Source: a virus. From it: a stretch of 64,000 nucleotides of DNA. Position 1 is the stretch's first letter, and each line of letters begins with the position of its first letter. The notes beneath the pieces were generated by a model. It ran no database searches. It worked only from the letters and a program-made list of their open reading frames with translations, and was not told the origin of the DNA. This document shows, one piece after another, positions 259-16,842 of this stretch. The DNA is taken from the IMG/VR virus record IMGVR_UViG_3300009509_000015, positions 11,361-75,360 of that record; one strand, written 5' to 3'. Both the position numbers and the translations under genes were made by a program.

Positions 259-263
259 TAAAT

Positions 264-335: not shown

Positions 336-339
336 CTAT

Positions 340-411
340 GCTCCTGTGATGTAACGGAAAGCATACTTGTCTTCTAAGCAATGAGTCTAGGTTCGAGTCC
401 TAGCAGGAGTA
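340..411 (+). tRNA. tRNA-Arg(TCT)
   Basis: Acceptor GCTCCTG/CAGGAGT, loop CT-TCT-AA, T-arm CTAGG-TTCGAGT-CCTAG. Confidence 0.88.
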
Positions 412-414
412 CCT

Positions 415-624: not shown

Positions 625-687
625 TTCAGACGGACAGAACGTTACCCTGCGAAGGTAGAAATGGTGGTTCGAATCCACCCAGGAACT
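615..687 (+). tRNA. tRNA-Arg(GCG)
   Basis: Acceptor GTTCCTG/CAGGAAC, TTACC-CTGCGAA-GGTAG, T-arm GGTGG-TTCGAAT-CCACC. Confidence 0.92.
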
Positions 688-690
688 TAG

Positions 691-771
691 GGCGAATCTG
701 CCGAGTGGGATCGGAGCTTGGCTGTAAACCAAGTGTCGTTTGACTAGGTTGTTCGATTCAATAATTCGCCA
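691..771 (+). tRNA. tRNA-Tyr(GTA)
   Basis: Acceptor GGCGAAT/ATTCGCC, CTTGG-CTGTAAA-CCAAG, long variable arm GTC-GTTT-GAC. Confidence 0.85.
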
Positions 772-776
772 CTCAC

Positions 777-848
777 TGCTAGATAGCTTAATGGTAGAGC
801 GTTCGGCTGTTAACCGAGAAGGCGCAGGTTCGACCCCTGCTCTAGCAG
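777..848 (+). tRNA. tRNA-Asn(GTT)
   Basis: Acceptor TGCTAGA/TCTAGCA, TTCGG-CTGTTAA-CCGAG, discriminator G. Confidence 0.93.
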
Positions 849-862
849 CCTAGGAAAATCTT

Positions 863-1171
863 ATGAGACTTGAGGAACTTTTTATGTGGCCTAATAGAAC
901 ATTGTGTGATGCACTGTCTGAAATGCGAAAAGCGTACGAGACAAGAAATTTTTCTTATCTACTTGGCTTGATAGAAGAAGTACAAAGTATGGGCAATAAA
1001 ATGGAGGCTGCACTTGGAGATAAGAAGGATGTTGAAACATTCACTAGAGATCGTGCTAAGCTAAAGAAAGAAATCAAAGAATTAGAAGCACAGAAATATA
1101 CTTTAGAAGAAACAATTGCTGATCTTGAAGAAGAGAAAGAAAGAAAACTTGGTGAGATAAGAAAGTTATAG
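863..1171 (+). CDS. coiled-coil hypothetical protein
   Basis: E/K/L heptad-rich C-terminal half. Confidence 0.7.
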   Translation: MRLEELFMWPNRTLCDALSEMRKAYETRNFSYLLGLIEEVQSMGNKMEAALGDKKDVETFTRDRAKLKKEIKELEAQKYTLEETIADLEEEKERKLGEIRKL

Positions 1172-1174
1172 TAA

Positions 1175-1248
1175 CAGAGTGTAGCTCAGTCTGGTAGAGT
1201 GACCCGTTTGGATCGGGGGGGTCGGAGGTTCGAATCCTTCCACTCTGA
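1175..1248 (+). tRNA. tRNA-Pro(TGG)
   Basis: Acceptor CAGAGTG/CACTCTG, loop TT-TGG-AT, T-arm GGAGG-TTCGAAT-CCTTC. Confidence 0.9.
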
Positions 1249-1261
1249 CTGGAGGTAAAAT

Positions 1262-1744
1262 ATGTCAACACGAAAGCTAACAACGTGGGAGATGGCAGAG
1301 TTTTACCCGATCTTTGGTAGTAATATAAAGTTTGGTGATATAGTAGTACACGAAAGCAGCCCAATACCTAACCTAATTGACAGGATCGGTAGCTTTTTTA
1401 CAGGAAAAGAACCCTATGCTAACAACGCAATTACTATAGGGAATAATGTTATGTTCCCAATGCCTATAGGCACAGACAAGGTATACTGGTTAATACATGA
1501 GGTAACACACGCTTGGCAGTATCAGCACATAGGGTGGAAGTACCTGTGGGATGCTGTCGTTGCACAATTTAGGGGCAAACCTTACGATTACGGTGGGGAA
1601 GATGGCTTGAATAGCCATACTAGTATATACGAATTTAATCCAGAACAGCAAGCGCAGATCGTACAAGACTATTATATACGAGTAGAGAACGGTGTGAACG
1701 CTGATGCCTGGAAACCATACATTGAGGAGATAAAAAATGGGTAG
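1262..1744 (+). CDS. DUF4157-like zincin metallopeptidase
   Basis: AITIGN...LIHEVTHAWQY (HExxH) and N-P-E-Q-Q-A motif. Confidence 0.7.
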   Translation: MSTRKLTTWEMAEFYPIFGSNIKFGDIVVHESSPIPNLIDRIGSFFTGKEPYANNAITIGNNVMFPMPIGTDKVYWLIHEVTHAWQYQHIGWKYLWDAVVAQFRGKPYDYGGEDGLNSHTSIYEFNPEQQAQIVQDYYIRVENGVNADAWKPYIEEIKNG

Positions 1745-2747
1745 TAGCTTAGTAGATGAGGGATCAGTTATTAGAAAGTTTAAATACTTTCTTGTTGTTG
1801 AAGCACCTAATGAGCTTGACGAACATGGAAACCCTAGGAAAACATGGCAAGTAGTAAGCACTACTAGGGCAATAGTATCTGGAGAAAATGTAACACAAAT
1901 TCTTAACGACTTTTGTATACGTTATGAGATTACCCCTCCTATTTTACCATTAAGCTTAACGTTTATTGGAGAAGAGCTTATAGACTTATCTGAAAAGCAA
2001 ACTCTCCTGCTTTATCAAATGGGTAAAGTAGGTAGTGTATCAATAAGATCGGCTCTTGAAAAGCTGGAATGGTTAGAAACAAGGCATATGCACTACCTAG
2101 TTAACGAGGGAGAGTACGGTACACGCTACGATCCTGTATGGTTACGTAGATTGGAGACAGAAGATACTATATGGAAAGTAATCACGTTGGTTAGAAACCC
2201 AATAGATCGCTGCGTATCTGGTTTCTTCTGGAGTATGATAGGAAAAGAAGAACCATTCCATGAGGGTATGTTGGACATGTTTGTGAATGAGTATAATCAC
2301 AACTGGACTGTAGACTGGATGGAGAATGAGCTTAATAAAGCACTCAACACTAACATTTATAATTATCCGTTTAATAAAAATCGTGGCTACTCCCTATACC
2401 ATAGGACTGCTGACAATGTAAGACCATACTTTCATTTGCTAGTTATCAGAACAGAGGATATGAGTCAAGTAGCTAGAACTGCTATAGCAGAACTACTACC
2501 AGAAGCTGATGTTGGAAATATTAACACGCTAAACTCCTCTATAAAAAGAAAGCCGATAGCAAATGCGTACAGCCAATTCAAAGCTCAGGCAGTATTACCA
2601 GATGACTATGTTGACTGGATACTTAACACAAGATATGCCAAGCATTTTTATTCTGATGAGGAGCTTGCGGTTTCTAGGGCTATGTGGACACTACCAGCAG
2701 AAGAAAGGCTATCTTTCTTAAAGGATATGATAGAAAAAAATAAATAA
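1737..2747 (+). CDS. sulfotransferase-fold protein, NKWYS/capsular polysaccharide synthesis family
   Basis: YQMGKVGSVSI (5'-PSB-like), ITLVRNPIDRCVS (3'-PB-like), C-terminal YAKHFYSDEE. Confidence 0.7.
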   Translation: MGSSLVDEGSVIRKFKYFLVVEAPNELDEHGNPRKTWQVVSTTRAIVSGENVTQILNDFCIRYEITPPILPLSLTFIGEELIDLSEKQTLLLYQMGKVGSVSIRSALEKLEWLETRHMHYLVNEGEYGTRYDPVWLRRLETEDTIWKVITLVRNPIDRCVSGFFWSMIGKEEPFHEGMLDMFVNEYNHNWTVDWMENELNKALNTNIYNYPFNKNRGYSLYHRTADNVRPYFHLLVIRTEDMSQVARTAIAELLPEADVGNINTLNSSIKRKPIANAYSQFKAQAVLPDDYVDWILNTRYAKHFYSDEELAVSRAMWTLPAEERLSFLKDMIEKNK

Positions 2748-2754
2748 GTAATTA

Positions 2755-2827
2755 GGCCCTGTCAGCTAAAGGTTAGGCTAGTGGGTTTTCACCCCACCAA
2801 TGTACGGTTCAAGTCCGACCAGGGTCA
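2755..2827 (+). tRNA. tRNA-Glu(TTC)
   Basis: Acceptor GGCCCTG/CAGGGTC, GTGGG-TTTTCAC-CCCAC. Confidence 0.9.
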
Positions 2828-2836
2828 CTACGGGAG

Positions 2837-3079
2837 GTGTCCATGATACAAGATGCTTATAATAATATAGCTGGCTTCTTGGATAAGACTAGGAAGCCGA
2901 TTGTAGAGAGCACATTCAAAACAAAACTGTTTAAAGCTTACGGTATATCTGATCACCCTAAAGCAGAAGAGGCATACAGAATTTCAGTAGAGCTTGCAGG
3001 AAAAGAAAATTACTATGACATACTTAATGTGCTACATATAATCTATCCACTATTATGTGAAAGGAATGGTAATGGCTAA
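2837..3079 (+). CDS. hypothetical protein
   Basis: ORF with GGGAGG SD. Confidence 0.6.
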   Translation: MSMIQDAYNNIAGFLDKTRKPIVESTFKTKLFKAYGISDHPKAEEAYRISVELAGKENYYDILNVLHIIYPLLCERNGNG

Positions 3080-3344
3080 ACAACAAAACGCTTATGTAAG
3101 ACCAGTAAGACAAGAAAAGTTTCAACTACCTGAGTATATAAAACCCATTAATTCTATTATTAAAGAAGCCAAAGTAGGAAGTGAAGTTAACCTAACTGTA
3201 AGAATTATGAGAGATGATAATAAAGGCTGGACAACTACAGAAGTTAGTGGTATAATTAGTGAAGTTGCACCAAACGCATTAATGCTACATGGAAAGTCAG
3301 TAGGAGTACCCTACTATACAGTACACGACTGGGAGATTCTATGA
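3057..3344 (+). CDS. hypothetical protein
   Basis: ORF coupled to dut by an ATGA overlap; true start may be ATG 3072. Confidence 0.6.
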   Translation: MKGMVMAKQQNAYVRPVRQEKFQLPEYIKPINSIIKEAKVGSEVNLTVRIMRDDNKGWTTTEVSGIISEVAPNALMLHGKSVGVPYYTVHDWEIL

Positions 3345-3781
3345 TAATTTTTACTATACTAGATAAGGATGCTACTGCACCCACCAGAAAATTTTCTGAT
3401 GACGCTGGTATTGACATTTATTCTTTATATGACATTAGGTTGTTAGCTAGATCATATCACATAGCACATACTGGGATAGGTATAAAAGTTCCGAAAGGTT
3501 ATGTTGGTCTGATGAAACCCAAAAGCAGGGATAGGTGGTTGGTAGGATCAGGTGTAATAGATACCTCCTACGTTGGTGAGCTTCTTATCGAGTTAGTTAA
3601 TCCTTATGATCGTGTGTTTACTATACCAAAAGAGTACCCAATAGCACAGATGCTTATACTATCAGGACTAATGGAGCCTTTACAAGAAATATCAATAGTG
3701 GAATGGGAAAAAATTAAAACGGACAGAGGTGCTACTGGAGGAATTGTAGGTAATAGTAAGGCTGTGTCAGCTAACGGTTAG
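3341..3781 (+). CDS. dut: dUTPase (trimeric type)
   Basis: Motifs AGIDI, PKS, GVIDTSYVGE, IAQM, RGATGG. Confidence 0.9.
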   Translation: MIIFTILDKDATAPTRKFSDDAGIDIYSLYDIRLLARSYHIAHTGIGIKVPKGYVGLMKPKSRDRWLVGSGVIDTSYVGELLIELVNPYDRVFTIPKEYPIAQMLILSGLMEPLQEISIVEWEKIKTDRGATGGIVGNSKAVSANG

Positions 3782-3831
3782 GCTATATCCCTCTCAAGGA
3801 TACAATGGGGGTTCGATTCCCCCCACAGTCA
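3760..3831 (+). tRNA. tRNA-Glu(CTC)
   Basis: Acceptor GGCTGTG/CACAGTC, TATCC-CTCTCAA-GGATA, GGGGG-TTCGATT-CCCCC. Confidence 0.92.
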
Positions 3832-3834
3832 TAG

Positions 3835-3906
3835 GCGTTCATAGTTTAATAGGTAAAACTTTAGTTTGCCATACTAACATTACGAGTTCGAGTCTCGTTG
3901 AACGCT
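3835..3906 (+). tRNA. tRNA-Gly(GCC)
   Basis: Acceptor GCGTTCA/TGAACGC, TTAGT-TTGCCAT-ACTAA, discriminator T. Confidence 0.9.
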
Positions 3907-3917
3907 CAGGAGATAAG

Positions 3918-4205
3918 ATGGAAAAAATTCTTTCAGTAGATACTAGAGCACTTGACATAATTCTTAATCAGGCTCACTGGCCTTACAGTGTACTGGAAAC
4001 TAGACGACCATATTTAGTGTATGTTACTAATATAGGCTATCAACCAGATACTAAGATGTTATTCAAAGCTGTCAAGGAAGATGGTGGTGTAAGCTATATA
4101 GAAGATCAAGAATTAAATACAGCACCAGTGCTAGGTATCATGGAATCGGAAGATGAAGTACCAGCTACCATTTCGTGGCTAGCATTATTTCAACGGGAAG
4201 GATGA
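3918..4205 (+). CDS. hypothetical protein
   Basis: AGGAG SD; stop codon lies inside tRNA-Ser. Confidence 0.65.
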   Translation: MEKILSVDTRALDIILNQAHWPYSVLETRRPYLVYVTNIGYQPDTKMLFKAVKEDGGVSYIEDQELNTAPVLGIMESEDEVPATISWLALFQREG

Positions 4206-4282
4206 CCGAATGGTAAGGTAACTGTCTTGAAAACAGATGTTATCCTTAACAGGATATGGGGGTTCGACTCCCTCTCCTTCCG
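4196..4282 (+). tRNA. tRNA-Ser(TGA)
   Basis: Acceptor GGAAGGA/TCCTTCC, loop CT-TGA-AA, long variable arm TATCCT-TAAC-AGGATA, discriminator G. Confidence 0.92.
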
Positions 4283-4287
4283 CTAAT

Positions 4288-4359
4288 CGTGGGGAAGTTT
4301 AACGGTAGAACACCTAGCTGATAACTAGGAGGAACAGGGTTCGACTCCCTGACCCACGA
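4288..4359 (+). tRNA. tRNA-Ile(GAT)
   Basis: CCTAG-CTGATAA-CTAGG, T-arm CAGGG-TTCGACT-CCCTG. Confidence 0.9.
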
Positions 4360-4375
4360 CCTTTAGGAGGTAGAT

Positions 4376-4885
4376 ATGGCACATACACCAGATATATTAA
4401 ACTCTTTAGCAGGCACACACCCACCTAAACCAGTAGCTAAAAAACTAGACCTGACAGTTAATGGTAGTGGTACACCAGTTAATGTTGCTGTGTCAGTAGA
4501 TGACTTTACATACATTGTTAGATTGATTTGGAAATTTGAATTTGCTGATCTATCAGTTGAGTGGACTAACTTTGGTGCTGGAAACGCATTAGCAAACGGT
4601 ATAAATATATACTATCATGATGCAAATATTTTTCCAGCAGCCATTAAATCAAACTCAGACTTCTTTGATTATGGTTATGATGTTAATCTACAATCAGATG
4701 GAGCAGCAACACCTGGGAATGTGCTGTCATCACGTTGGTCATTTAATAAATGGGTTCCTAACGGTCTTGGTATGTGGAACGCAGAGGCATTTGCAGTACG
4801 GGTTAGTGATGACCTACGAACAGCGACACGCACAGATATTACCAGCCTGTTCTGTATAGTAGAAGGTTGGAAAGCACATGAGTAA
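4376..4885 (+). CDS. beta-rich hypothetical protein, possibly virion-associated
   Basis: AGGAGG SD; G/N/T-rich beta-strand composition. Confidence 0.55.
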   Translation: MAHTPDILNSLAGTHPPKPVAKKLDLTVNGSGTPVNVAVSVDDFTYIVRLIWKFEFADLSVEWTNFGAGNALANGINIYYHDANIFPAAIKSNSDFFDYGYDVNLQSDGAATPGNVLSSRWSFNKWVPNGLGMWNAEAFAVRVSDDLRTATRTDITSLFCIVEGWKAHE

Positions 4886-4956
4886 GCCCTCTAAGCATTA
4901 AGGTGATGCAGTGGTCTTTTAAACCACAGAAGGAGGTTCGATACCTCCAGGGGGTA
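4886..4956 (+). tRNA. tRNA-Lys(TTT)
   Basis: GTGGT-CTTTTAA-ACCAC, GGAGG-TTCGATA-CCTCC. Confidence 0.92.
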
Positions 4957-4959
4957 CTA

Positions 4960-5031
4960 GGACACGTGGCTCTAAGGCAGAGCAGCAAGCTCATAACTTG
5001 CAGGGAGTTGGTTCGATTCCAACCGTGTCCA
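4960..5031 (+). tRNA. tRNA with CAT anticodon (elongator Met or lysidine Ile2)
   Basis: Acceptor GGACACG/CGTGTCC, GCAAG-CTCATAA-CTTGC; paired 1-72 and no GGG/CCC anticodon stem, so not an initiator. Confidence 0.88.
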
Positions 5032-5060
5032 CTGTGCGATAAACACCGAGCTTTGTCCAG

Positions 5061-5155: not shown

Positions 5156-5530
5156 ATGAGTATCTCAAACTTTCTTGAAAACGAACTGCTAGACACTGCT
5201 TTAGCAACAGGCGCATACAGCACAGCAAACGTGTATGTATCTGTCCACACTGCTGACCCTGGAGAAACAGGAGCTAGTGAGGTAACTGGTGGTGGCTATG
5301 GTCGTCAAGGCCCTACTACCTTCTCTGCTGCTGCTTCTGGCACAACTTCCAACACAGCACAGATCGACTTCACAAACATGCCTGCTGTAACTGCCACACA
5401 CATTGGTTTGTGGGATGCTGCAACTGCTGGTAACTTCTTGTGGGGTGGTGCTCTAACTTCTAGCAAGACGCTAAATGGTGGAGACACTTTCCGCATTGCT
5501 GCTACAGATTTGGACGTTTCTCTAGACTAA
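5156..5530 (+). CDS. small virion fibre subunit (putative major fibre protein)
   Basis: SNFLEN..LD...VSVHTADPGETGASEVTGGGYGRQ...HIGLWDAATAGNFL pattern seen in small phage fibre-associated proteins; first gene of operon. Confidence 0.65.
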   Translation: MSISNFLENELLDTALATGAYSTANVYVSVHTADPGETGASEVTGGGYGRQGPTTFSAAASGTTSNTAQIDFTNMPAVTATHIGLWDAATAGNFLWGGALTSSKTLNGGDTFRIAATDLDVSLD

Positions 5531-5619: not shown

Positions 5620-8313
5620 ATGACCTTAGCGCAACCCTATTGGCGGTTTAGAAATGATAATTATGGCTTAAACGTAGATAACGGGTGGTTAGCAGCCATA
5701 AATACTGCCCCAAGTTCACTAGATATGGGGCAGCAATTTCGTTTGCGAATAGAAGTTGCAGAAACTGCTGGTACTTCTACCACAGATGGCTTTAAACTAC
5801 AAGTAAAAGTAAATGCAGGCTCGTGGAATGACTGTGGTACACAGTCTAATGGTAGTAATACTGCTGTAATTGTTACTAACTCATATCAATACGCTGATCA
5901 AGATGCAACAACTAACTTATTATCTGGTTCTTCAGAAACATTTGAAGCTGGTGAAGGTTTATACGACGATAACCTTACAGCCTCACACACCCTACAAAAC
6001 GAGCATACTGAATTTGAGTGGGCGCTATTAACCCTAAAGAACTATTATGACTTCGCTGTTTTAGCAGACGGAGACACAATATATTTAAGAGTTGTTAGGG
6101 ATGATGGTACTGCTCTTGATAGCTACCAAGATATTTCATATACAGTTAATGAGCCTGCTGGTTTTATTGGTGGTACATTTGTAGAAAGCGCACATTCATT
6201 AGGCCCAATTCAAGACAGCAACGGAAACCTATACTTTTTTGGTGAGCACAACTCACAGAACAACCCAACAAATAACAACGAACCATGTATGTGGAAGTCT
6301 ACTGATGATGGTGTAACTTGGGATGAAGTAGACGGTACTAACAGACCTGTAGGTTCTGACTTTGAATCTGCTGACATGCAAGTTATCAACGATATTATTT
6401 ATATAGCACAGCATAGAGGTAGTGCTGGTATCAGGCTACATGTTTTCAACATGAGTGCTGCTTCTAGTAACCAAGATACATGGACAACAACAGACGAAGT
6501 AGTAGATAGTTCAACTCCAGAAGCAGACCAAGCAGTAGCATTAGCCGTTCTTTCTGATGGAGATATGTGGTGCTTTTACAGAACTACAGTAAGCAGTTAC
6601 GAAAGCATAGTTTATAAACGTCGCACATCTGGATCATGGGGATCGAGAAACACACTAGACACACAGGCAACTACGAACTTTACCTGGGTAGCTTGTGTTG
6701 TTGGCGAGAGCAACCTTACACACGTTTTCTACCAAGAAATCACTAACGGTACTGGTAATATCTGGCATAGATCATTGTCAAGTGGTGGCACATTATCTGG
6801 TAGGGAAAGCATTTCTACTGCATCTGGCACAAACAACAACAACTCAAAAGGTATTGCCAAACCTTTATATTGGGATGACGCTGGTGATGAAATTATTTTT
6901 GTTGTTTACCGTGAAAGTGATAACGATGCGTGGTCACGTACCATTACAAACGACGGTACTCCAAGCTCAGCTACAGGCCCAATAAACACCTATTCTATGG
7001 ATCGTTCTTTAGGTGGTAGCGCCCAAGCAGCCATGCAATTAGTAGGTGATGGTACTGGAAATGCTTGGTTAATTTATCTAGACAATGTTAACCAACACCC
7101 GTACTTACTTGAGTATGTTTATGGTACTGGTTGGGGAAGTGAGATAACACTAAGCAGTACATTAACAGCAAACTTTCAACAAATTGGTCATTACACTATT
7201 TCAAATGGAGATGAGGTCGTTGGTTATGTACTAGAAACTCACCCATATTGGGATACAGCAGGTGCTTATGGTGACGATGGCTTGATGTGGTACTACAGCT
7301 ATGTCTTAGTGCCTGGAGGAATAGCTTCGTTATCTGGTACAGGATCATTAAGTGCAATTGGATCAGTTATTGCTGGTTTTGCTACAGTTACTGGAGCAGC
7401 AGCCTTAACAGGTACAGGTACATTAAGCGCAACAGGACTGCAAATACAGCCTAGACAACCAGTATTACTAGATACAGTTACTAGTGAGGCTAATGGAGTC
7501 TCACTAACAAGTGCCACAATAACACCACAACCAAACTCTTTATTAATAGTAGTAGTTACTAATGCACATGGAAGCTCTCCAATAGGGTGGTCTACGTGTT
7601 CCGACACTCTTACAGGAACAGGCTCGTGGACTAGAAATGCTGATATAGATGATAATCAGTCAAACAACTATGGTATAGCTGTTTGGACAGCGCAATGTGG
7701 AGCAACCCCAGGTAGTGGAACAGTAACACCAACATGGACTAATAGCACATCCAACAGAAAAGTAATGTTTGTATTTGAAGTACCTTTTGGTTTTGATACA
7801 ACTACACCAATAAGACAAACAAAAACTGGATCAAATGCTACAGCAACACCATCATTAACATTTGATAATACCCCTCTTGCTTCTTCAACGGTTTTTGGTG
7901 CTATAGGTTCTAAAAGTGATCCTGACTCAGTTATTACGCCAGGAACTGGCTTTACTGAAGTAGCTGAAGACGTTAGTGGTGTGTCTAGTCCGACAAATAC
8001 AGGACAAGCAGAGTATGACTTAACACCTGTAGATGGGGTAGTAGATTGGTCTGGTGCTGGAACTCTTAATAATGTATTTTTAGCTATTGAAATACAAGAA
8101 GCTGCTGATGAAGTTGGGGCAGCAGCTTTAACTGGAACAGGTACATTGTCAGGAGCAGGAATTGGCATAGCACCAAGCGCCGTAGCTATGACAGGTACAG
8201 GTACGCTAAACGCAATTGGTAAACAACTATTATGGCCTTTCTCTGATGACTTCACAGGATCAAATGATGATCCTTGGGCAGCAGGAAAGTGGACAACGGG
8301 CGCAAGCCCATAA
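5620..8313 (+). CDS. large fibre/adhesin protein 1: Asp-box beta-propeller, beta-sandwich, 4 GxGTL repeats
   Basis: KSTDDGVTW Asp-box; repeats such as GAAALTGTGTLSATG; C-terminal LWPFSDDF...W....KW peptide. Confidence 0.7.
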   Translation: MTLAQPYWRFRNDNYGLNVDNGWLAAINTAPSSLDMGQQFRLRIEVAETAGTSTTDGFKLQVKVNAGSWNDCGTQSNGSNTAVIVTNSYQYADQDATTNLLSGSSETFEAGEGLYDDNLTASHTLQNEHTEFEWALLTLKNYYDFAVLADGDTIYLRVVRDDGTALDSYQDISYTVNEPAGFIGGTFVESAHSLGPIQDSNGNLYFFGEHNSQNNPTNNNEPCMWKSTDDGVTWDEVDGTNRPVGSDFESADMQVINDIIYIAQHRGSAGIRLHVFNMSAASSNQDTWTTTDEVVDSSTPEADQAVALAVLSDGDMWCFYRTTVSSYESIVYKRRTSGSWGSRNTLDTQATTNFTWVACVVGESNLTHVFYQEITNGTGNIWHRSLSSGGTLSGRESISTASGTNNNNSKGIAKPLYWDDAGDEIIFVVYRESDNDAWSRTITNDGTPSSATGPINTYSMDRSLGGSAQAAMQLVGDGTGNAWLIYLDNVNQHPYLLEYVYGTGWGSEITLSSTLTANFQQIGHYTISNGDEVVGYVLETHPYWDTAGAYGDDGLMWYYSYVLVPGGIASLSGTGSLSAIGSVIAGFATVTGAAALTGTGTLSATGLQIQPRQPVLLDTVTSEANGVSLTSATITPQPNSLLIVVVTNAHGSSPIGWSTCSDTLTGTGSWTRNADIDDNQSNNYGIAVWTAQCGATPGSGTVTPTWTNSTSNRKVMFVFEVPFGFDTTTPIRQTKTGSNATATPSLTFDNTPLASSTVFGAIGSKSDPDSVITPGTGFTEVAEDVSGVSSPTNTGQAEYDLTPVDGVVDWSGAGTLNNVFLAIEIQEAADEVGAAALTGTGTLSGAGIGIAPSAVAMTGTGTLNAIGKQLLWPFSDDFTGSNDDPWAAGKWTTGASP

Positions 8314-8321
8314 GGTGATAT

Positions 8322-11300
8322 ATGACTTGGGCAGTAGATACCTCAACTCAGGGTACATATGGAACTAGTAACCCTAATACACTAAGCCACACATGTTCAG
8401 CATCTACTAAGTTGCTGGTGCTGGCTATATTTGTCAATGGTACAACTGCCAGGACAGGAGGAGCACCAACCTACAATGGTACTCCTATGACTGATAGTGG
8501 TCAAGGTTTCGTTTTCTTATCTGGTGGTGAGGCTGGTGTTGAAGTATGGTATTTAATAGAACCTGATACTGGAAGTAGCTATACTGTTAGTGTTCCTAAT
8601 ACGGGGGCAGTAAACTGTGACTTATCTGTAACATCATTTGAAGCTACTAATAATGCTGCTTTTGATAACTCAAATAGTGCGTCTGCTGATTCAGGAACTT
8701 GGAGTGTATCAGTAACTGTTTCCAACAACAACTGTTTAATGTTCGGTGCGGTTGGATCAGGCGAACGTGACACGCCTACTGCTGGAACAAACTATACTCT
8801 CATCCATACTTATGACGCAGGAAACCAAGTTTGGGGATCAGAGTATGACCTTGATGCGGGTAGTTCAGGGAGTATTACAGTAGATTTCACCCCTGCTCGT
8901 GCTGATGACTGGGGCTTAATCGGTATAGGCTTCTATGAAACAACAACAGCTACTGTAACAGGTGCTGCTGCACTAACTGGTACTGGTTCTTTATCTGCTA
9001 TTGGAAAAGGTATAGCAAGTTCTGCTGCTGCTCTATCAGGAACAGGAACAATTACTAATGTTCCAGCTTATGCTATTACTAGTTCTGCTGGAGCTTTATC
9101 TGGAACTGGTACGCTATCAGCAATAGGGTTCAGGTTAATTACTGGTGTAGCTGCACTATCTGGTACAGGCACGCTATCAGCAATAGGTGCTAGAGTAGCA
9201 TTGGGAGTAGCTGCATTATCTGGCACAGGTACATTATCTGCTGCTGGCTATATAGTATTTCCATCAGAAGTAACAATACAAAATAACCAAGGTAGACTAT
9301 CATTTGCTGATAGTGCTCAAGCATATGCTAGAGCTATATCTACTATGGCAGATCAATCTAATGCAGAACTTACAGCTAAGTTTACTTTTGGTGATCTTGT
9401 TTCTGAAGGTTTACTAAGATTTCATCTACGTGGTTCAGGAGACTGGGCAGACTGGCAAACACCTACAACAGCCTACGAAGTAGAGATTGCCAACACTGGT
9501 GACTGGAAAGTTTATAGGATTCAAAGTGGTAGCCGTACACAAATAGGCACTACACAAACTTGGACTTCCACAACAGAACAACACTCTATTAAATTTCAAG
9601 TAGTAGGAACAGATATACGTGCTAAAGTATGGCGCACAATTGACTCAGAACCTGGGTGGCAGAAAGATATTGACGACTCTACCAGTGGATTTACTACAGC
9701 AGGTACATTACAGCTAGGCTATTTCCGTGTAGCTGGATCACATTATGTTGATCTTGATGATGTTTCTGTGCAATCTCCAGAATCTGTAGAATTTGGTGTT
9801 GCTGCCCTAACGGGTACAGGTACTTTGTCTACATCTGGACTAGGCATAGCTTATGGTACAGCAGCAATATCTGGAACAGGTACGCTAACAGCTAAGTATG
9901 CTCATATACCACTTACAGACTTAATATATTGGCTAGACTTTTCTGATCAGACTGCTATATGGAAAACTTCTACAGAACGTATAGGTGCAGATAATGACAC
10001 AATCTATGAAATAAAAGACAAGTCTGGCAATAACTATGGTGCAACACAAGCAACAGAAGGACTAAGACCTACTTGGAAAACTAATATACAAAATGGCCTT
10101 GCAATGTCTTTGTGGAATCCAGCTACTACTACAAACATGCGTGGGCCTTATGGAGACATGAGTAGTGTTTTACCAACAAATACAGGTACAGCTTTTGTTG
10201 TACTCATCCAAGATGGAACAAATGCAAATAACACTGTTATAAACACTACTATAGCCTCTGTTGCTGGTGATAACCAGATAACAATACACGCAACATACTC
10301 AAATAACCTGTACTTTGATATGGGTGATTATGCTGGTGGTGGACGAATTTACGGAGCACAACCATCTGGTTGGGATGACGTTGCACATATCTATTCTGCA
10401 TATAGATCAGGGTCTAGTGGAGAAATATCTGTTGATGGTGCTCCTATAGTTTTAACAGTGGACACTTATACAGATGACTTTGAGCCTGGAAGAGATGTTG
10501 GATATTTGTATACGATAGGAGCAAACTTCCCAGGAAACCAAATCAACTTTAAAGGATATATTGGCGAAATAATCTTTTATAAAACAAAACTTTCTGCTGC
10601 TGAAATACTACAAGTACAGAGATACCTAACAGATAAGTGGAGTGTAACATTAATACAAACTAGCGCAGCTTCTTTATCAGGCACAGGAACTCTATCAGCA
10701 ACAGGATCAGCTATAGTATCTGGTGCTGCAAGTTTGACAGGAACTGGAACATTAACAAGCTCAGGTACAGGAATTGCTTCCAGCGCAGCTACATTAACAG
10801 GTACTGGTACACTAACAGGCATACCACTTGTAATATCATTTGGTGTAACTTCATTAACAGGTACTGGTACGTTATCAGCAATTGGAACATTCTTTAGTGT
10901 ACAGCAAACTTCTGCTGCTTTAACGGGTACTGGTACACTAAGCGCAATAGGTTATGCAATTGCATCAAGCGCTGGTACTATGTCTGGTACTGGAACACTA
11001 ACAGGCGTACCATTTGTATTATCATTCGGTGTGTCTGCTCTAACAGGTACTGGAACATTATCAGCAATAGGTAGTGCTGCTGGTATAGAACAAAGTGCTG
11101 CTACACTTTCAGGAACAGGCACATTATCAGCAATTGGTGAAGCTACTGCTTTTGGTGTGACCGCATTATCTGGCACTGGCACGTTATCGTCAGCATCATA
11201 TGCTATAACATCAAGTGCTGGAGCACTTTCAGGAACAGGCACATTATCAGCAATTGCTACAACACTTGGACTTAAGACTGGCGTTGTATCAATGAGTGGT

Positions 11301-11843
11301 ACTGGTACATTATCCGCTATACCACAAGTCTTCGCAATAGCTACCGCTTCGCTAACAGGTACTGGTACGTTAACTACAGCAGCCTATCAGATAAGCATAA
11401 ACAATACAGCAAGCTTGTCTGGCACTGGCACAATGTCTGTTATTGGCTCAGTAGGTGGTATAATTCAAGGTGTTGCTACACTAGATGGTACTGGTACATT
11501 ATCAGCTATACCATTCGTTGTTAGCTACGCTGTAGCCACAATGTCTGGAACGGGTACGTTAGTTAGCTCTAGCCTAATTATCGTGCCTGTAAGTGTGACA
11601 ATGAGTGGTACAGGTACATTAAGTGCTACAGGATATGCACTAGCCCTTGGCGTAGTTGCCATGACAGGAACTGGCACACTAAGCGCAATTGGCTCAGGTA
11701 TAGGAATTGAGACTGGCGTAGCCTCATTAACAGGTGTAGGTACGCTAACAGCAGATTACAGATTATGGCCTTTCACAGACGATTTCACATTCAGTGATGA
11801 TTCTGTTTGGGATGTAAGCAAGTGGGAAGTAACAGAGGTATAA
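8322..11843 (+). CDS. large fibre protein 2: N-domain, ConA-like and LamG-like domains, ~25 GxGTL repeats
   Basis: WLDFSD...KDKSGNNY..TQAT...RPT and FKGYIGEIIFY (LamG-like); 20-24-aa repeats; C-terminal LWPFTDDF peptide. Confidence 0.7.
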   Translation: MTWAVDTSTQGTYGTSNPNTLSHTCSASTKLLVLAIFVNGTTARTGGAPTYNGTPMTDSGQGFVFLSGGEAGVEVWYLIEPDTGSSYTVSVPNTGAVNCDLSVTSFEATNNAAFDNSNSASADSGTWSVSVTVSNNNCLMFGAVGSGERDTPTAGTNYTLIHTYDAGNQVWGSEYDLDAGSSGSITVDFTPARADDWGLIGIGFYETTTATVTGAAALTGTGSLSAIGKGIASSAAALSGTGTITNVPAYAITSSAGALSGTGTLSAIGFRLITGVAALSGTGTLSAIGARVALGVAALSGTGTLSAAGYIVFPSEVTIQNNQGRLSFADSAQAYARAISTMADQSNAELTAKFTFGDLVSEGLLRFHLRGSGDWADWQTPTTAYEVEIANTGDWKVYRIQSGSRTQIGTTQTWTSTTEQHSIKFQVVGTDIRAKVWRTIDSEPGWQKDIDDSTSGFTTAGTLQLGYFRVAGSHYVDLDDVSVQSPESVEFGVAALTGTGTLSTSGLGIAYGTAAISGTGTLTAKYAHIPLTDLIYWLDFSDQTAIWKTSTERIGADNDTIYEIKDKSGNNYGATQATEGLRPTWKTNIQNGLAMSLWNPATTTNMRGPYGDMSSVLPTNTGTAFVVLIQDGTNANNTVINTTIASVAGDNQITIHATYSNNLYFDMGDYAGGGRIYGAQPSGWDDVAHIYSAYRSGSSGEISVDGAPIVLTVDTYTDDFEPGRDVGYLYTIGANFPGNQINFKGYIGEIIFYKTKLSAAEILQVQRYLTDKWSVTLIQTSAASLSGTGTLSATGSAIVSGAASLTGTGTLTSSGTGIASSAATLTGTGTLTGIPLVISFGVTSLTGTGTLSAIGTFFSVQQTSAALTGTGTLSAIGYAIASSAGTMSGTGTLTGVPFVLSFGVSALTGTGTLSAIGSAAGIEQSAATLSGTGTLSAIGEATAFGVTALSGTGTLSSASYAITSSAGALSGTGTLSAIATTLGLKTGVVSMSGTGTLSAIPQVFAIATASLTGTGTLTTAAYQISINNTASLSGTGTMSVIGSVGGIIQGVATLDGTGTLSAIPFVVSYAVATMSGTGTLVSSSLIIVPVSVTMSGTGTLSATGYALALGVVAMTGTGTLSAIGSGIGIETGVASLTGVGTLTADYRLWPFTDDFTFSDDSVWDVSKWEVTEV

Positions 11844-11844
11844 T

Positions 11845-14800
11845 ATGTCTTGGACTTTAGATACTTCAACTCAAGGAACTTATGGAGCAAGCGATCCTAG
11901 TACACTAACGCATACGTGTTCTAGTGCTACTCGCTTGCTAGTCCTTGTTATCTTTGTTAATGGTACTACTGCTCGTACTGGTGGTGCTCCTACTTACAAC
12001 GGCTCTTCTCTAACAGATAGCGGTCAAGGATTTGTGTTTGATACTGGCGGTGAAGCTGGTGTAGAAATATGGTACTTAATAGAACCAGATACAGGCAGTG
12101 GATATACTTTAAGCGTTCCTAATACAGGAGCAGCAAATATTGACCTATCTGCTATGTCATTTGAGCCTACATCAGGCAACACAGCAGCATTTGATGGAGC
12201 AAATAGTGCAAGTGGTACAACACAGAACCCATCAGTATCTGTTACAATCTCAAATAACAATGCCCTAATGGTCGGTGGCTTGGGATCAGGAGATCGTGAT
12301 GCCCCTACTGCTGGAACAAACTATACGCTGGTTCATACGCAGGATGCTGGAAACCAAACATGGGGAAGTGAGTACGATCTAGACGCTGGAAGTTCTGGTT
12401 CTATAACTGTATCTTTTAGCACAGCACGAGCAGACGACTGGGGCTTGATTGGTATAGGTTTCTATGAAACCGCAGGAACAACTGTTGTTACTGGAGCAGC
12501 AGCCCTAACTGGTACTGGATCGCTGTCAGCTATAGGCTCATTCTTTTCAATAGAAACTGGTGTTGCACCACTAAGCGGAACAGGAACATTATCCGCAGCC
12601 TCTTACGCTATCGCTAGTTCTGCTGGCGCTATGTCTGGAACTGGCACATTAAGTGCCATTGGTACACTAATTACTATATACGGGGCTGCTGCACTAACAG
12701 GTACTGGATCACTAACTGGTATAGGTTATGCAATTTCCTTTGCAGTTGCAACAATTAGTGGCACAGGTACGCTTTCTGCAATTGCAAAGGGTATAGTACA
12801 GGGGGTTGCAAATCTAACAGGCACAGGTACGCTTTCTGCAATCGGAACTTTCTTTACACCAGCACAAACTATCACAGGAGTAGCAGCACTTTCTGGTACT
12901 GGAACATTATCTAGTAGTGGTATTGCAATTTCTATTGCAACAGCTAGCCTATCTGGTACAGGAAGTCTAGTTGCTATTGGTGCTCCTGTAGGCGCAGATA
13001 CTATAGTAGATGTTCAAACTAACCAAGGTAGAATTTACTTACCTGATAGTGCTGGCGTATATGGGCGTGCTATAGCCAAGAGAATGTTAAAGAAAACAAA
13101 CTCTGAAGTATTACTATACTTTAAGTTTGACGATACAAACGCAGAGGGTGTGTTCCGAGTATTTATGCGTGCCTCTGGTGATTGGAACACAGCAGACAAA
13201 CCTACAGATGGTTATGAAGTAGCTATCTCAAACTCTTCTGGTGGTTTAACACTTAATAAAATACAAAGTGGTACACGGTCTAATATAACAAGCGGTAGCT
13301 GGACAGCAACGACTGCTGCTCAGTGGTTGAGATTCCAAACAAACGGTAACGCACTTAAAGTAAGAGTGTGGGCAGATGGTTCTGGTGAGCCTGGAACATG
13401 GGATATTGATACAACTAATGCAGACATTTCTACTGCTGGCGTGCTACAGGTAGGTTTCTGGAGGGTATCTGGAACACATACAATGTACATCGACAGCATC
13501 AATGTCCATGATGTTGTAGGTTTCCAGTACGGAGCAGCAGCCTTAACAGGAACTGGAACACTATCTGCTATTGGATCAGCAATTGTCTACGGAGCAGCAG
13601 CCCTTTCTGGAACGGGCACGTTAAGTTCTGCATCAACAGCAATAACATCTAGCGCTGCTAGCTTAACAGGTACAGGCACACTAACAGCTATTGGTGAAAA
13701 GGTAACAGCTATTGTTACTGGTGTTGCAAGCTTATCAGGTACAGGTAGCCTAGCTGCTACTGGATATGCTATAGTCTCTAGCGCAGCTACATTATCTGGA
13801 ACGGGCACGCTAACAGCTATTGCTACTTACTTCTCTGTTGGAGCAGCCTCACTAACTGGAACTGGTACGCTATCTGCTACTGGTTATGCTATTGTCTCTG
13901 GTGTAGCCTCACTAACTGGAACTGGTACGCTAACTGCAATAGGCAATCCTGCTGGAGTAATCCAGGGCAATGCCAACCTAACAGGCACAGGCACACTATC
14001 TTCAAGTGCTACAGTAGTTGTCTATGCTACAGCAGCATTAAGCGGAACAGGAACATTAACTTCAGCAAGCCTAGCCATAACAAGTAGTGCTGCAAGCCTA
14101 AGCGGTAATGGTACTTTATCAGCAATTGGTACTAGGATACAGCTTGGAGTAGTACAATTGTCAGGTACTGGTACGCTAGCTGCTGTACCATTTGTAATAG
14201 TACCTTCAGCAGCTACACTAAGCGGAACTGGCACACTAACAAGTGCTGCTTATGCTATAACAACTGGAGCAGCATCATTAACTGGTGTGGGATCACTAAT
14301 TGCTAGACCAGAGATCGAGAACTTAATCACTGGAAGGGCAGCCCTAACTGGAACTGGTACGTTATCTGCTATTGGATACGGTATAGCTTCAAGCACAGTT
14401 TCAATGAGTGGTACTGGAGTTCTAACAGGTGTAGGCTACGCAATAGCAAGCACTACAGCAAGCTTAAGTGGCAATGGAACATTAACTGCTACACCATTTG
14501 TATTATCATACGCTACAGCAGCCCTATCAGGACAAGGAACATTAACAGCCACTAGCTATGCTATAGCTTCTGGAGCAGCTAGCTTAACTGGACTTGGCAC
14601 ATTAGTTGCTAGACCAGAAGTTGAGGGATTATTAACTGGCGTTGTATCTATGACAGGTACTGGTACAATGTCTGCTATACCATTTGTACTATCTTATGGT
14701 AATGTGTCTATGTCTGGACTAGGCACACTAACTGCAAAAGCATCAGGAGAAATTACTGGAGCAGCTACCTTATCTGGTACTGGCGTACTAACCGCAAGCA

Positions 14801-15240
14801 GCCTAGCAATAACTTCAAGTGCTGTAACAATGAGTGGTACTGGTGCTATGAACGTAGTTGGTATAGGTGTGTCAGAAAGCGCTGTATCAATGTCTGGCGC
14901 TGGTACATTAGCAGCCATACCACAAGTGTTTGCACTAGGTACTGTATCAATGTCTGGTACAGGAGTTCTATCTGGATCAGGTTATGGTATATCAATAGCA
15001 AATGCTTCGCTATCTGGACTAGGCACACTAACATCAACAGGTATTGCAATTGCTTACGCTGGCGCAAGTCTAACAGGACAAGGTACATTACTCGTAGTTA
15101 TAAGAGCTATACCAGCTACTTGGTTCTTAGAGGGATCGTTCATATTAACCATAGAGCTAGATGGTACGATTGTAGATACTGTAGAGTTAGATGCCCAGTT
15201 TGAGACTATTGAACTAGAGGGTAATACTTTCGAGGATTAA
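11845..15240 (+). CDS. large fibre protein 3: paralogous N-domain, ConA-like domain, ~34 GxGTL repeats
   Basis: First ~205 aa closely similar to protein 2; acidic TIELDG-type C-terminus. Confidence 0.7.
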   Translation: MSWTLDTSTQGTYGASDPSTLTHTCSSATRLLVLVIFVNGTTARTGGAPTYNGSSLTDSGQGFVFDTGGEAGVEIWYLIEPDTGSGYTLSVPNTGAANIDLSAMSFEPTSGNTAAFDGANSASGTTQNPSVSVTISNNNALMVGGLGSGDRDAPTAGTNYTLVHTQDAGNQTWGSEYDLDAGSSGSITVSFSTARADDWGLIGIGFYETAGTTVVTGAAALTGTGSLSAIGSFFSIETGVAPLSGTGTLSAASYAIASSAGAMSGTGTLSAIGTLITIYGAAALTGTGSLTGIGYAISFAVATISGTGTLSAIAKGIVQGVANLTGTGTLSAIGTFFTPAQTITGVAALSGTGTLSSSGIAISIATASLSGTGSLVAIGAPVGADTIVDVQTNQGRIYLPDSAGVYGRAIAKRMLKKTNSEVLLYFKFDDTNAEGVFRVFMRASGDWNTADKPTDGYEVAISNSSGGLTLNKIQSGTRSNITSGSWTATTAAQWLRFQTNGNALKVRVWADGSGEPGTWDIDTTNADISTAGVLQVGFWRVSGTHTMYIDSINVHDVVGFQYGAAALTGTGTLSAIGSAIVYGAAALSGTGTLSSASTAITSSAASLTGTGTLTAIGEKVTAIVTGVASLSGTGSLAATGYAIVSSAATLSGTGTLTAIATYFSVGAASLTGTGTLSATGYAIVSGVASLTGTGTLTAIGNPAGVIQGNANLTGTGTLSSSATVVVYATAALSGTGTLTSASLAITSSAASLSGNGTLSAIGTRIQLGVVQLSGTGTLAAVPFVIVPSAATLSGTGTLTSAAYAITTGAASLTGVGSLIARPEIENLITGRAALTGTGTLSAIGYGIASSTVSMSGTGVLTGVGYAIASTTASLSGNGTLTATPFVLSYATAALSGQGTLTATSYAIASGAASLTGLGTLVARPEVEGLLTGVVSMTGTGTMSAIPFVLSYGNVSMSGLGTLTAKASGEITGAATLSGTGVLTASSLAITSSAVTMSGTGAMNVVGIGVSESAVSMSGAGTLAAIPQVFALGTVSMSGTGVLSGSGYGISIANASLSGLGTLTSTGIAIAYAGASLTGQGTLLVVIRAIPATWFLEGSFILTIELDGTIVDTVELDAQFETIELEGNTFED

Positions 15241-15241
15241 T

Positions 15242-15607
15242 ATGACTAAACGAAAACAAGACTTTGTAACTTGGACAGGCAACGACGAAAAGATAGAGTT
15301 CACTGTTTATCAAGATGACGGTGTTACTCCTTTAAACATTTCTGCTGGCACACTTTCTTGGATAATGAAAGAATCAAGAACAGCAACAGCAGCATTAATT
15401 GAAAAGGAAACTGGTGGTCAAGGTATTTCCATTACTGATGGTGCTAATGGAAAGTGTCAAGTAGACCTTGATCCAGCAGACACTAATGGTTTAGAGGGCG
15501 CAAAATACTTTCATGAACTGAAACTAACTCTTTCTAATGAAACCAAAACAGTATCAGAGGGTACGGTCACGATCCATAGAAGTGGTTTCTCTGATCTTAC
15601 CCCTTAA
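15242..15607 (+). CDS. BppU-like Ig-fold virion adaptor protein
   Basis: GNDEKIEFTV..D...PLNIS...ITDGANGKCQVDLDPADT..L...YFHEL pattern. Confidence 0.6.
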   Translation: MTKRKQDFVTWTGNDEKIEFTVYQDDGVTPLNISAGTLSWIMKESRTATAALIEKETGGQGISITDGANGKCQVDLDPADTNGLEGAKYFHELKLTLSNETKTVSEGTVTIHRSGFSDLTP

Positions 15608-15708: not shown

Positions 15709-15779
15709 GCCTTCATCGGTTAATGGTAAACCGTGTGGCTTCCAACCACTGACTGCGAGTTCGAGTCTCGCTGAAGGCT
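15709..15779 (+). tRNA. tRNA-Gly(TCC)
   Basis: Acceptor GCCTTCA/TGAAGGC, GTGG-CTTCCAA-CCAC, GCGAG-TTCGAGT-CTCGC. Confidence 0.92.
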
Positions 15780-15803
15780 CAGTAAAATTTTGAGGAGGCA
15801 ACT

Positions 15804-16019
15804 ATGCCATTATATGAGTACAAGTGTGGTAATCCTAGCTGTAATAACATTCACGAAGAGGGTAGACCCTCTGCATATAGGGATGTTTCAGCAGAGTGCC
15901 CCATATGTGGGAGTGAGGCAGAAAGAATTTATTCAACAGGGCAAACGTTTGTTATCCCACATGACAAACCAGCAGTTTATAAAAACGCTGCTGGTGAGAC
16001 AGTACGCAGGGTAACTTAA
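15804..16019 (+). CDS. FmdB-family zinc-ribbon protein
   Basis: MPLYEYKC....C...CPICGS..ERIYS. Confidence 0.8.
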   Translation: MPLYEYKCGNPSCNNIHEEGRPSAYRDVSAECPICGSEAERIYSTGQTFVIPHDKPAVYKNAAGETVRRVT

Positions 16020-16026
16020 CAACTTC

Positions 16027-16103
16027 GGGGGTGTAGCTCAGTATATGGTTAGAGCAACATTCTTACAAAATGGAGGTCGCTGGTTCGAGTCCAGCCATCC
16101 CCA
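16027..16103 (+). tRNA. tRNA-Val(TAC)
   Basis: Acceptor GGGGGTG/CATCCCC, CATT-CTTACAA-AATG, GCTGG-TTCGAGT-CCAGC. Confidence 0.92.
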
Positions 16104-16160
16104 CTAGCCTTATCTACCATGTGTAGAAAAAGATCAGAGCACCTTAAGGGTGCTCAGCTA

Positions 16161-16232
16161 GCCTTCAAAGCATTAATGGTGATGCAGTCGGCTCTTAACC
16201 GATAGATTCAGGTTCAAGTCCTGATGAGGGCA
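16161..16232 (+). tRNA. tRNA-Lys(CTT)
   Basis: Acceptor GCCTTCA/TGAGGGC, GTCGG-CTCTTAA-CCGAT. Confidence 0.92.
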
Positions 16233-16234
16233 CT

Positions 16235-16768
16235 ATGCTAGTACGTGATAAGCTTACTAAAGAAGTTTTAGAAGATTATAAACGCCAGGGTTTATCAACC
16301 CATCAAATAGCAAGACTTATAGGTTGTAGCCAACCCTATGTCTCTAAAGTTGCTATACAAAGAGGCATACATTTTACTAGAGAAAAAGGAACTTGTATCG
16401 TTTGTGGTAATACATTAAATAGAGGTAAAAAATATTGCTCTCACCAGTGTCAAAAGAATGAACAACACCAAAAACTTATAAGCCAATGGTTGTCTGGTGA
16501 ATGGAACGGGCTTAGAGGAAAAAAAGTTACTGCCCTTTCTAAAACAATAAGAGATTATTTGTTAAAGCAAGCAGACTACAAGTGTTCTAAATGTGGTTGG
16601 GCAGAAGTAAATGAATCTTCTGGTATGATACCGTTAGAAATAAATCATATTGATGGTAATCACAAAAATAATAGACCAGAAAATTTAGAAGTTGTATGTC
16701 CTAACTGCCATGCACTAACACCAAACTTTAGAGGACTAAATAAAAACAGTACTCGCACGCACCGATAG
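16235..16768 (+). CDS. HNH endonuclease (probable free-standing homing endonuclease)
   Basis: N-terminal HTH, CxxC..KYCS..C, CSKCG, LEINHIDGNHKNNRPENLEVVCPNCH. Confidence 0.9.
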   Translation: MLVRDKLTKEVLEDYKRQGLSTHQIARLIGCSQPYVSKVAIQRGIHFTREKGTCIVCGNTLNRGKKYCSHQCQKNEQHQKLISQWLSGEWNGLRGKKVTALSKTIRDYLLKQADYKCSKCGWAEVNESSGMIPLEINHIDGNHKNNRPENLEVVCPNCHALTPNFRGLNKNSTRTHR

Positions 16769-16832
16769 TTCTAAGTAGGCAAAACGCATGTCTTGTAAAC
16801 ATGATTTGTGGGATCGTGGCCCACTCGGTGCT
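16759..16832 (+). tRNA. tRNA-Thr(TGT) with atypical T-loop
   Basis: Acceptor GCACCGA/TCGGTGC, CATGT-CTTGTAA-ACATG, T-arm GTGGG-ATCGTGG-CCCAC. Confidence 0.8.
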
Positions 16833-16842
16833 CCTTAAATTA

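Follow-up and report, generated by a model that had tools for sequence, protein, structure and literature searches.

In chaperone-usher pili (Fim, Pap), the incomplete β-sandwich of one subunit is completed by a short peptide of its neighbour, which links the tip, middle and terminator subunits non-covalently into ordered chains. In the type V pili of Bacteroidia (FimA/Mfa1), a protease removes the N-terminal strand of the subunit and the groove is filled by the C-terminal strands of the next one. To our knowledge, the way in which the proteins of multi-protein phage fibres find their partners and are put in order is known for a few model phages only, and these use trimeric N-terminal adaptors or chaperones. 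Here we analyzed a stretch of viral DNA of 64,000 nucleotides (hereafter the window; positions 11,361 to 75,360 of the IMG/VR record IMGVR_UViG_3300009509_000015) that is part of a virus record of 75,360 bp that is 85% complete. We focused on three consecutive fibre genes, P1, P2 and P3. An initial annotation of the window had proposed that a lectin-like domain is split twice across these genes, and that the C-terminal peptide of each upstream protein completes the domain of the next. We found that the beginning of a concanavalin A (ConA)-like domain is encoded at the C-terminal ends of P1 and P2 (the tails, or plugs when their proposed role is meant), and that the bodies of this domain, which lack their head segment, are located inside P2 and P3 (the sockets). 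We consider it moderately probable that the split domain is completed in trans in a plug-and-socket manner, with P1 joining P2 and P2 joining P3 as the favoured form. The genes and domains concerned are as follows.

5620-8313, plus strand: P1, plug-only protein of 897 amino acids (open reading frame [ORF] and repeat positions).
8230-8310, plus strand: tail of P1, amino acids 871-897 (hidden Markov model [HMM] of the full domain, motif scan, and alignment with three other tails).
8322-11843, plus strand: P2, socket-plus-plug protein of 1173 amino acids, a paralogue of P3 (ORF).
9258-9776, plus strand: headless socket of P2, amino acids 313-485 (HMM, AlphaFold2 [AF2] model, and structural match to 4azz).
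11763-11840, plus strand: tail of P2, the second head peptide, amino acids 1148-1173 (full-domain HMM, motif scan, and tail alignment).
11845-15240, plus strand: P3, socket-only terminal protein of 1131 amino acids (ORF and repeat positions).
12985-13512, plus strand: headless socket of P3, amino acids 381-556 (HMM; 42% identical to the P2 socket).

The translations of P1 and P2 end in LWPFSDDFTG...KWTTGASP and LWPFTDDFTF...KWEVTEV, respectively. These tails are 26-27 amino acids long and have the form WPF-x-DDF...W...KW, and when the entire 75,360-bp record was scanned in 6 frames, the WPFxDDF...W...W motif was detected only at the C-termini of P1 and P2. The sockets of P2 and P3 are paralogous, and a scan of the whole record located this domain only at these 2 places. 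The FxDDF-type ends of P1 and P2 and the abruptly starting paralogous domains of P2 and P3 were thus described correctly in the initial annotation. We then used an HMM of 204 positions, derived from 80 homologues that have peptide and body in one contiguous stretch. Among 563 six-frame ORFs, this model aligned the P1 tail (amino acids 874-894) and the P2 tail (amino acids 1151-1171) with its positions 4-24 (independent E-values of 0.003 and 0.085, respectively). The same HMM aligned the P2 body with positions 30-202 (E 3e-43) and the P3 body with positions 27-202 (E 9e-56). Because tails and bodies occupy these positions with no overlap and no gap, 1 tail and 1 body make exactly 1 domain. This supports the proposal that the terminal peptides correspond to the N-terminal segment of the domain family that the sockets lack. 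The head segment is absent directly N-terminal to both sockets and sits at the C-termini of P1 and P2 instead. Immediately before the sockets, the sequence consists of repeat residues that are not conserved and that AF2 modelled with a predicted local distance difference test (pLDDT) score of only 52-73, which makes a replacement for the head in cis unlikely. P3 has no tail according to the motif scan and the HMM search, and no socket was found in P1 by profile and HMM searches. Joining of P1, P2 and P3 by read-through or frameshifting was considered and rejected. The reading frame changes across each junction, so read-through cannot join the 3 proteins; in addition, several stop codons lie in between, and a separate Shine-Dalgarno-like site precedes each gene. 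The P1/P2 junction (8311-8324) reads TAA, a GGTGA Shine-Dalgarno-like site and ATG, and the P2/P3 junction (11835-11847) GAGGT, TAA, T and ATG.

The fold of the socket was analyzed with an AF2 model of amino acids 300-495 of P2, which contains 13 strands and has a mean pLDDT of 91. Foldseek matched this model to 4b1m (E 2.7e-07), and VIA-align matched it to the CBM66 structure 4azz (Z 17.8, root-mean-square deviation [rmsd] 2.6, 159 residues aligned, identity 14%). Further structural matches were a GH16-like endoglucanase (VvEG16), ERGIC-53 and legume lectins. Overall, the ConA-like matches had Z scores from 17.8 to 15 and rmsd values of 2.5-3.5 over 156-187 residues, with a sequence identity of 5-14%. 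On the basis of this model, the socket fold is a ConA-like/CBM66-like two-sheet β-sandwich, and the labels "ConA-like" and "lectin-like" that the domain had been given are correct.

To place the split domain within its family, a two-domain profile search was performed, which returned 1951 representative proteins at E <= 1e-3; the architecture counts given here rest on the best 150 of these. Homologues with peptide and domain contiguous do exist, as the initial annotation had anticipated: the motif [F/L]-x-D-D-F-T-G...W...K-W-T-T directly precedes the body in 93 of the 146 domain instances in which the start is covered (for example in P0081, P0041, P0045, and P0053). Pfam gave no match even for these contiguous homologues, and the family is not in Pfam. 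The architecture of P2, with a headless internal socket and a C-terminal head peptide, recurs in 5 of the best 150 proteins (P0013, P0022, P0028, P0049, and P0057). Of 35 headless-only homologues, 5 have a C-terminal tail, whereas none of the 97 contiguous homologues does (Fisher p = 0.001). At least 9 tails, which come from lineages less than 45% identical and always lie at the extreme C-terminus, retain the key residues F, D, F and W, and the tail-bearing lineages carry 3 unrelated repeat types (GTGTL, SDSQxAYIxG, and SAExFGT). Conservation of the tail residues across lineages with unrelated repeats argues for selection on the tail itself. We also inspected an AF2 model of the whole P0022 protein, which contains both a socket and a tail. 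The socket was predicted with a pLDDT of 92-98, and the tail (amino acids 484-510) with a pLDDT of 29-41 and without any strand. This model does not support docking in cis and, given the shallow tail alignment and the 3 recycles used, is uninformative on binding in trans. A word-based search with the P1 tail produced no candidates for short plug proteins among shorter proteins, and the sole relative retrieved in a near-length search was P0151, which is 96% identical. The best-scoring socket homologues are proteins of approximately 450 amino acids in which a headless C-terminal socket follows a conserved YPRIMGxR stretch and no tail is present (P0002, P0003, P0004, P0010, P0014, P0024, and others).

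Tails and headless sockets were counted by whole-genome searches in 3 genomes, the source record (G000) and 2 others (G001 and G002), and their numbers match in all of them: 2:2 in the source record, 3:3 in G001, and 1:1 in G002. G001 is a related phage with a 101.7-kb record bearing terminal repeats, and its gp80-like protein (a fibre subunit considered below) is 76% identical to that of the window. The tails of G001 belong to a 500-amino acid globular protein, a 73-amino acid ORF and P0057, while 1 of its sockets is in P0057 and the other 2 are in a 1417-amino acid terminal protein. G002 (92 kb, 100% complete by CheckV) presents the simplest case, with a 319-amino acid tail gene located directly upstream of the 1218-amino acid socket gene and ending exactly where the latter starts. 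Since neither of these 2 G002 proteins carries both a tail and a socket, completion of the domain in this phage, if it occurs, can only take place in trans.

The counts fit the order P1 to P2 to P3, and they equally fit an arrangement in which P1 joins P3 and P2 closes itself; this main alternative also keeps completion in trans. In such a rewired fibre, the P2 tail would close the P2 socket, either in cis or in a second copy of P2 to form homopolymers, and the P1 tail would enter P3. Six proteins in which a headless socket is combined with a tail (P2 and the 5 homologues of the same architecture named above) are compatible with this wiring, as are the 2:2 and 3:3 counts and the fact that G001 has 2 plug proteins without socket for the 2 sockets of its terminal protein. 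However, P2 would have no obvious link to the other fibre proteins, and its 660-residue repeat stretch would need to loop back. Moreover, the order of the genes, like the simple pair of G002, speaks for the insertion of an upstream plug into a downstream socket. We thus regard the rewired arrangement as unlikely and retain P1 to P2 to P3 as the preferred order.

Two observations on the G001 proteins concern the ends of such modules. The ATG of the 73-amino acid ORF (L007:8881-9102) overlaps the stop codon of the preceding 463-amino acid gene, and its product consists of approximately 45 unrelated residues followed by the tail YPFTDAYTG...W...KW; this product may act as a small adaptor between another protein and a socket. 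P0049 and P0057 share repeats, socket and tail and differ mainly in their N-terminal domain, as would be expected if the N-terminus were the exchangeable distal end. A 298-amino acid G001 protein (L007:9108-10004) has N-terminal sequence in common with P0049, and judging from their sequences it looks as if N-terminal domains had been swapped onto the same connector scaffold. Among 74 gp80-like loci, the split was found in the G001 contig only. No further genomes with the split were detected in scans of viral contigs with A2, P0028, P0056, and P0020 or of metagenome contigs with A9 and A10, and a scan of viral contigs with P0013 returned only loci that share the N-terminal domain.

Several results weigh against the plug-and-socket reading. 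The headless AF2 model, with its pLDDT of 91, spans 159 of the 165 residues of CBM66. Since it covers nearly all of this domain, the head may lie at the periphery as an added edge element and not be a core strand, and the socket may be stable alone. This qualifies the analogy with pili that the initial annotation had drawn. Approximately 30 other headless homologues have no tail, including the group of approximately 450 amino acids with a C-terminal socket. The source genome is only 85% complete, and only 3 genomes were counted. Finally, the sockets cluster by genome and not by position, so that they provide no evidence for the order P1 to P2 to P3 or for conserved plug-socket specificity classes; socket classes defined by position were rejected for this reason. 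The folding of the socket alone and the many headless homologues without tail are also what would be seen if the tails were scars of gene fission or module shuffling. The sockets would then be self-sufficient lectins, and the fibre would be assembled through the shared N-terminal domains or the repeats. However, a useless scar of 27 amino acids should decay, and the key tail residues have been kept in those at least 9 divergent tails. Furthermore, tail and socket numbers match in the 3 genomes, and tails are restricted to proteins and genomes with headless sockets (p = 0.001, as above). We therefore consider it quite unlikely that the tails are scars, and continue with completion in trans.

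If the plug-and-socket reading holds, P1, P2 and P3 would be modules of a single accessory fibre, with a split ConA-like domain as their joint. Approximately 25 residues from the start of the domain, with the F-x-D-D-F motif and 2 conserved Trp residues, would have been transferred to the very C-terminal end of a partner protein as the plug, leaving the remaining approximately 173 residues inside the receiving protein as the socket. After translation, the plug would insert beside the last strand of the socket, restoring the complete sandwich and tying the 2 chains non-covalently. The P2 plug would most likely enter the P3 socket and the P1 plug the P2 socket, and the C-terminal module of P3, probably together with the 121-amino acid protein encoded downstream, would fix P3 to the virion. 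With sockets in the interior of the proteins, such a fibre would branch instead of forming a simple linear chain. P3 would form the trunk of a tree, with P2 branching off the P3 socket and P1 off the P2 socket, and the tips would carry the N-terminal domains, the Laminin-G-like domain of P2 and the BNR-propeller-like domain of P1. We also put forward, more tentatively, the possibility that the split ConA-like domain works as a natural non-covalent tag-and-catcher, in which plugs and sockets decide which module attaches where and give rise to branched, very long chain-like fibres. Modules could then be swapped or added through 1, 2 or 3 joints per genome, and a fibre could display several different glycan-binding or -cutting heads.

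Apart from the split domain, the operon encodes the following features.

5156-5530, plus strand: gp80-like fibre-dimer subunit of 124 amino acids (Pfam PF23140 Gp80, PDB 8jou, PHROG 240).
6172-7314, plus strand: BNR/sialidase-like β-propeller of P1, amino acids 185-565, a lead only (Atlas structure neighbours).
8322-8966, plus strand: N-terminal domain common to P2 and P3, amino acids 1-215 (approximately 70% identical between P2 and P3).
9879-10661, plus strand: complete Laminin_G_3-like domain of P2, amino acids 520-780, a lead only (Atlas features).
15070-15237, plus strand: non-repeat C-terminal module of P3, amino acids ~1076-1131, candidate virion anchor (comparable C-termini elsewhere).
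15242-15607, plus strand: small conserved downstream gene, 121 amino acids (PHROG 1084).

The 124-amino acid gene, which ends at 5530 upstream of the P1 start at 5620, is by sequence a clear member of PF23140, the family of the podophage GP4 fibre I subunit gp80. It matched the Pfam profile over positions 2-128 of 128 (E 4.8e-35, 121.1 bits against a cut-off of 27), scored 120.3 bits in the genome search, and matched PDB 8jou (E 8e-13) and PHROG 240. P1, P2 and P3 contain approximately 63 units of a 20-22-amino acid repeat, A-x-L-S/T-G-T-G-T-L-S-A-x-G, with approximately 4, 25 and 34 units, respectively. In GP4, A1002, VP1, and Bas63, gp80-like dimers dock by β-sheet augmentation on successive sites of a "rope" (PMC13730344, PMC12609058). 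The A1002 rope is oriented with its C-terminal part in the tail, proximal to the virion, and with its N-terminus distal (PMC13730344). It uses approximately 268 dock residues for 11 dimers, which amounts to approximately 24 residues per dimer and is near the 20-22-amino acid period of the window. A gp80-like gene and LTGTGTLSA-type repeats also adjoin in MEP401, L014, L065, and L070. The GP4 gene downstream of gp80 encodes LTGSG/LSGSG repeats of approximately 20 amino acids, and GP4 gp79 is a candidate for the published rope. Based on the adjacency of the gp80-like gene, the recurrence of this arrangement elsewhere and the GP4 repeats, the GTGTL repeats are by analogy probably a rope on which gp80-like dimers dock. 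Together with the joints proposed above, this would give an unusually large accessory fibre, with approximately 63 docking repeats, on a siphophage. Searches of the PDB with P3, MEP401 gp59, and GP4 gp79 found no sequence match to a solved rope, and solved ropes may be deposited as unknown residues.

The repeats might instead fold on their own, which the sequence of P3 brings into consideration because amino acids 691-833 of this protein weakly resemble PDB 3jx8, a GSG-repeat "putative lipoprotein" (E 0.0097). They would then form a self-folding single-chain β-helix or solenoid rod, and the gp80-like protein would act elsewhere, for example at the capsid or neck. In line with this, G002 has the split and a comparable repeat protein but no gp80-like gene, which also counts against the rope, and the repeat motif is present in only 4 of 73 gp80-like loci. 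However, the adjacency of gp80-like genes and LTGTG repeats recurs in several unrelated phages and in GP4, and the period of the repeat is close to the number of residues per dimer of the A1002 rope. A solenoid rod is thus possible but doubtful, and we keep the rope as the probable role of the repeats. In L014, another siphophage contig, a GAAALSGTGALSAAG-repeat protein (2-496) with a P3-like C-terminal module ends 5 nucleotides before the gp80-like gene (501-872). The latter is 65% identical to that of the window and lies just upstream of genes that, by position only, are head-tail connector/tail-like. This arrangement is a hint that such fibres may sit at the neck or in the position of whiskers.

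The proteins that have sockets and no tail (P3, the 1417-amino acid protein of G001, the 1218-amino acid protein of G002, and P0020) end in a non-repeat, strand-like module of approximately 55-70 amino acids, and comparable non-repeat C-termini are present in the rope-like ORFs of L014 and L065. In all 3 genomes, a small gene of 108-121 amino acids directly follows the socket-only gene (window 15242-15607, 121 amino acids; G001, L007:16558-16884, 108 amino acids; G002, L097:10754-11083, 109 amino acids). The 121-amino acid product is 34% identical to its G001 counterpart and belongs to PHROG 1084 (E 2.6e-13), the function of which is unassigned. The label "BppU-like" that it had received in the initial annotation finds no support in Pfam, where no BppU match was obtained at E <= 1 and the only hit was DUF5110 (E 0.14). 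A PDB sequence search returned nothing below E 0.8. We consider the 121-amino acid protein a candidate partner of the P3 anchor module. The simplest reading of these C-termini is that the C-terminus would be the attachment end of each protein, bearing either a plug for the socket of another protein or an anchor module for the virion, in line with the orientation of the A1002 rope.

P1 consists of an N-terminal sandwich, the propeller-like region, a few GTGTL repeats, a domain related to the P2 N-terminus (amino acids 736-865, resembling amino acids 121-246 of P2) and the tail. The Atlas structure neighbours of the propeller-like region are BNR_2 clusters (template modelling score 0.77-0.79), and 1 SxDxGxTW box (STDDGVTW) was recognized by eye in its translation. 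P2 and P3 are 54% identical over their first approximately 600 amino acids, and relatives of their common N-terminal domain occur in P0013 and at locus L003. The Laminin-G-like region of P2 had an Atlas feature score of 0.96 to viral clusters that are 100% PF13385. Pfam gave no match in P1-P3 at E <= 1, including the P1 propeller and the P2 Laminin-G-like regions, and a PDB sequence search gave none for the N-terminal domain or the Laminin-G-like region of P2. Among the distal domains, the propeller-like region of P1 and the Laminin-G-like region of P2 look like glycan-handling modules, and we treat them as leads only.

The phage is a siphophage, and the minus strand between 24 and 53 kb carries the genes for its tape measure, major head protein, portal and large terminase. 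The fibre operon is separate from these, lies on the plus strand and comprises, in this order, the 124-amino acid gp80-like gene, P1, P2, P3, and the 121-amino acid gene, as tightly coupled but separate cistrons. It is located within an array of 15 tRNA genes that flank it on both sides (window 1-5032 and 15709-16834), and is oriented opposite to the main virion module. Between tRNA genes, at 16235-16768, there is an ORF of 177 amino acids with Cys pairs and an H-N-H-like motif recognized by eye, which may encode a homing-type endonuclease. Near-identical DNA was not found among deposited phages.

A lectin-type domain that is split between consecutive fibre genes and would serve as a connector, 1 to 3 times per genome, appears to be undescribed, and a limited literature search found no report of strand complementation in phage fibres. 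If the plug-and-socket reading is true, strand complementation as known in bacterial pili would also occur in a viral lectin fold. The reading would further provide an assembly rule that can be read from sequence, since the genome alone would predict which fibre proteins are connected, the number of branches and the sites where receptor-binding modules are exchanged. In addition, small natural peptide-domain pairs of this type could serve protein engineering.

The sockets have the same β-sandwich as CBM66 and other ConA-like lectins, but the known domains are made of a single chain whereas the sockets are split, and sugar binding by the sockets is only putative. Among phage structures, the split nozzle of A1002 (gp39 and gp42) is alike in that 1 ancestral domain is partitioned between neighbouring genes and reconstituted by added β-strands. 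In A1002, however, the split concerns a β-propeller/platform, occurs once and lies in the tail core, whereas here a lectin-type domain is split repeatedly and acts as a putative connector. The chain-like fibres of the podophages GP4, VP1, and A1002 and the whiskers of Bas63 share with the operon of the window a PF23140 gene beside proteins with Gly-rich repeats of approximately 20 amino acids and, in the proposed reading, a proximal C-terminus and β-augmentation as the joining principle. Compared with them, the putative ropes of the window are 3 to 10 times longer (approximately 63 repeats versus 2 to 11 docking sites), contain intervening globular domains, and are spread over 3 proteins that the split lectin domain would join. 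Moreover, the present phage is a siphophage with a tape-measure gene.

The analogy with donor-strand complementation in pili, on which the initial annotation was built, stands in part. The split is conserved and the numbers of tails and sockets match in the 3 genomes, and the resemblance to chaperone-usher pili would lie in the mechanism only, namely an incomplete sandwich completed by a peptide of the neighbour. The analogy fails in that the predicted fold is ConA-like and not the immunoglobulin fold of pilins, the missing segment is N-terminal and not the C-terminal G strand, and the donor is a C-terminal tail and not an N-terminal extension. In addition, the predicted product branches, neither a chaperone nor an usher is evident, and the socket is predicted to fold alone. 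The topologically closest system is that of the type V pili, in which the N-terminal segment is also missing and the donor is also C-terminal. They differ from the proteins of the window in their fold and in being bacterial surface organelles, and their groove is created by proteolysis, whereas here the split is encoded in the genes.

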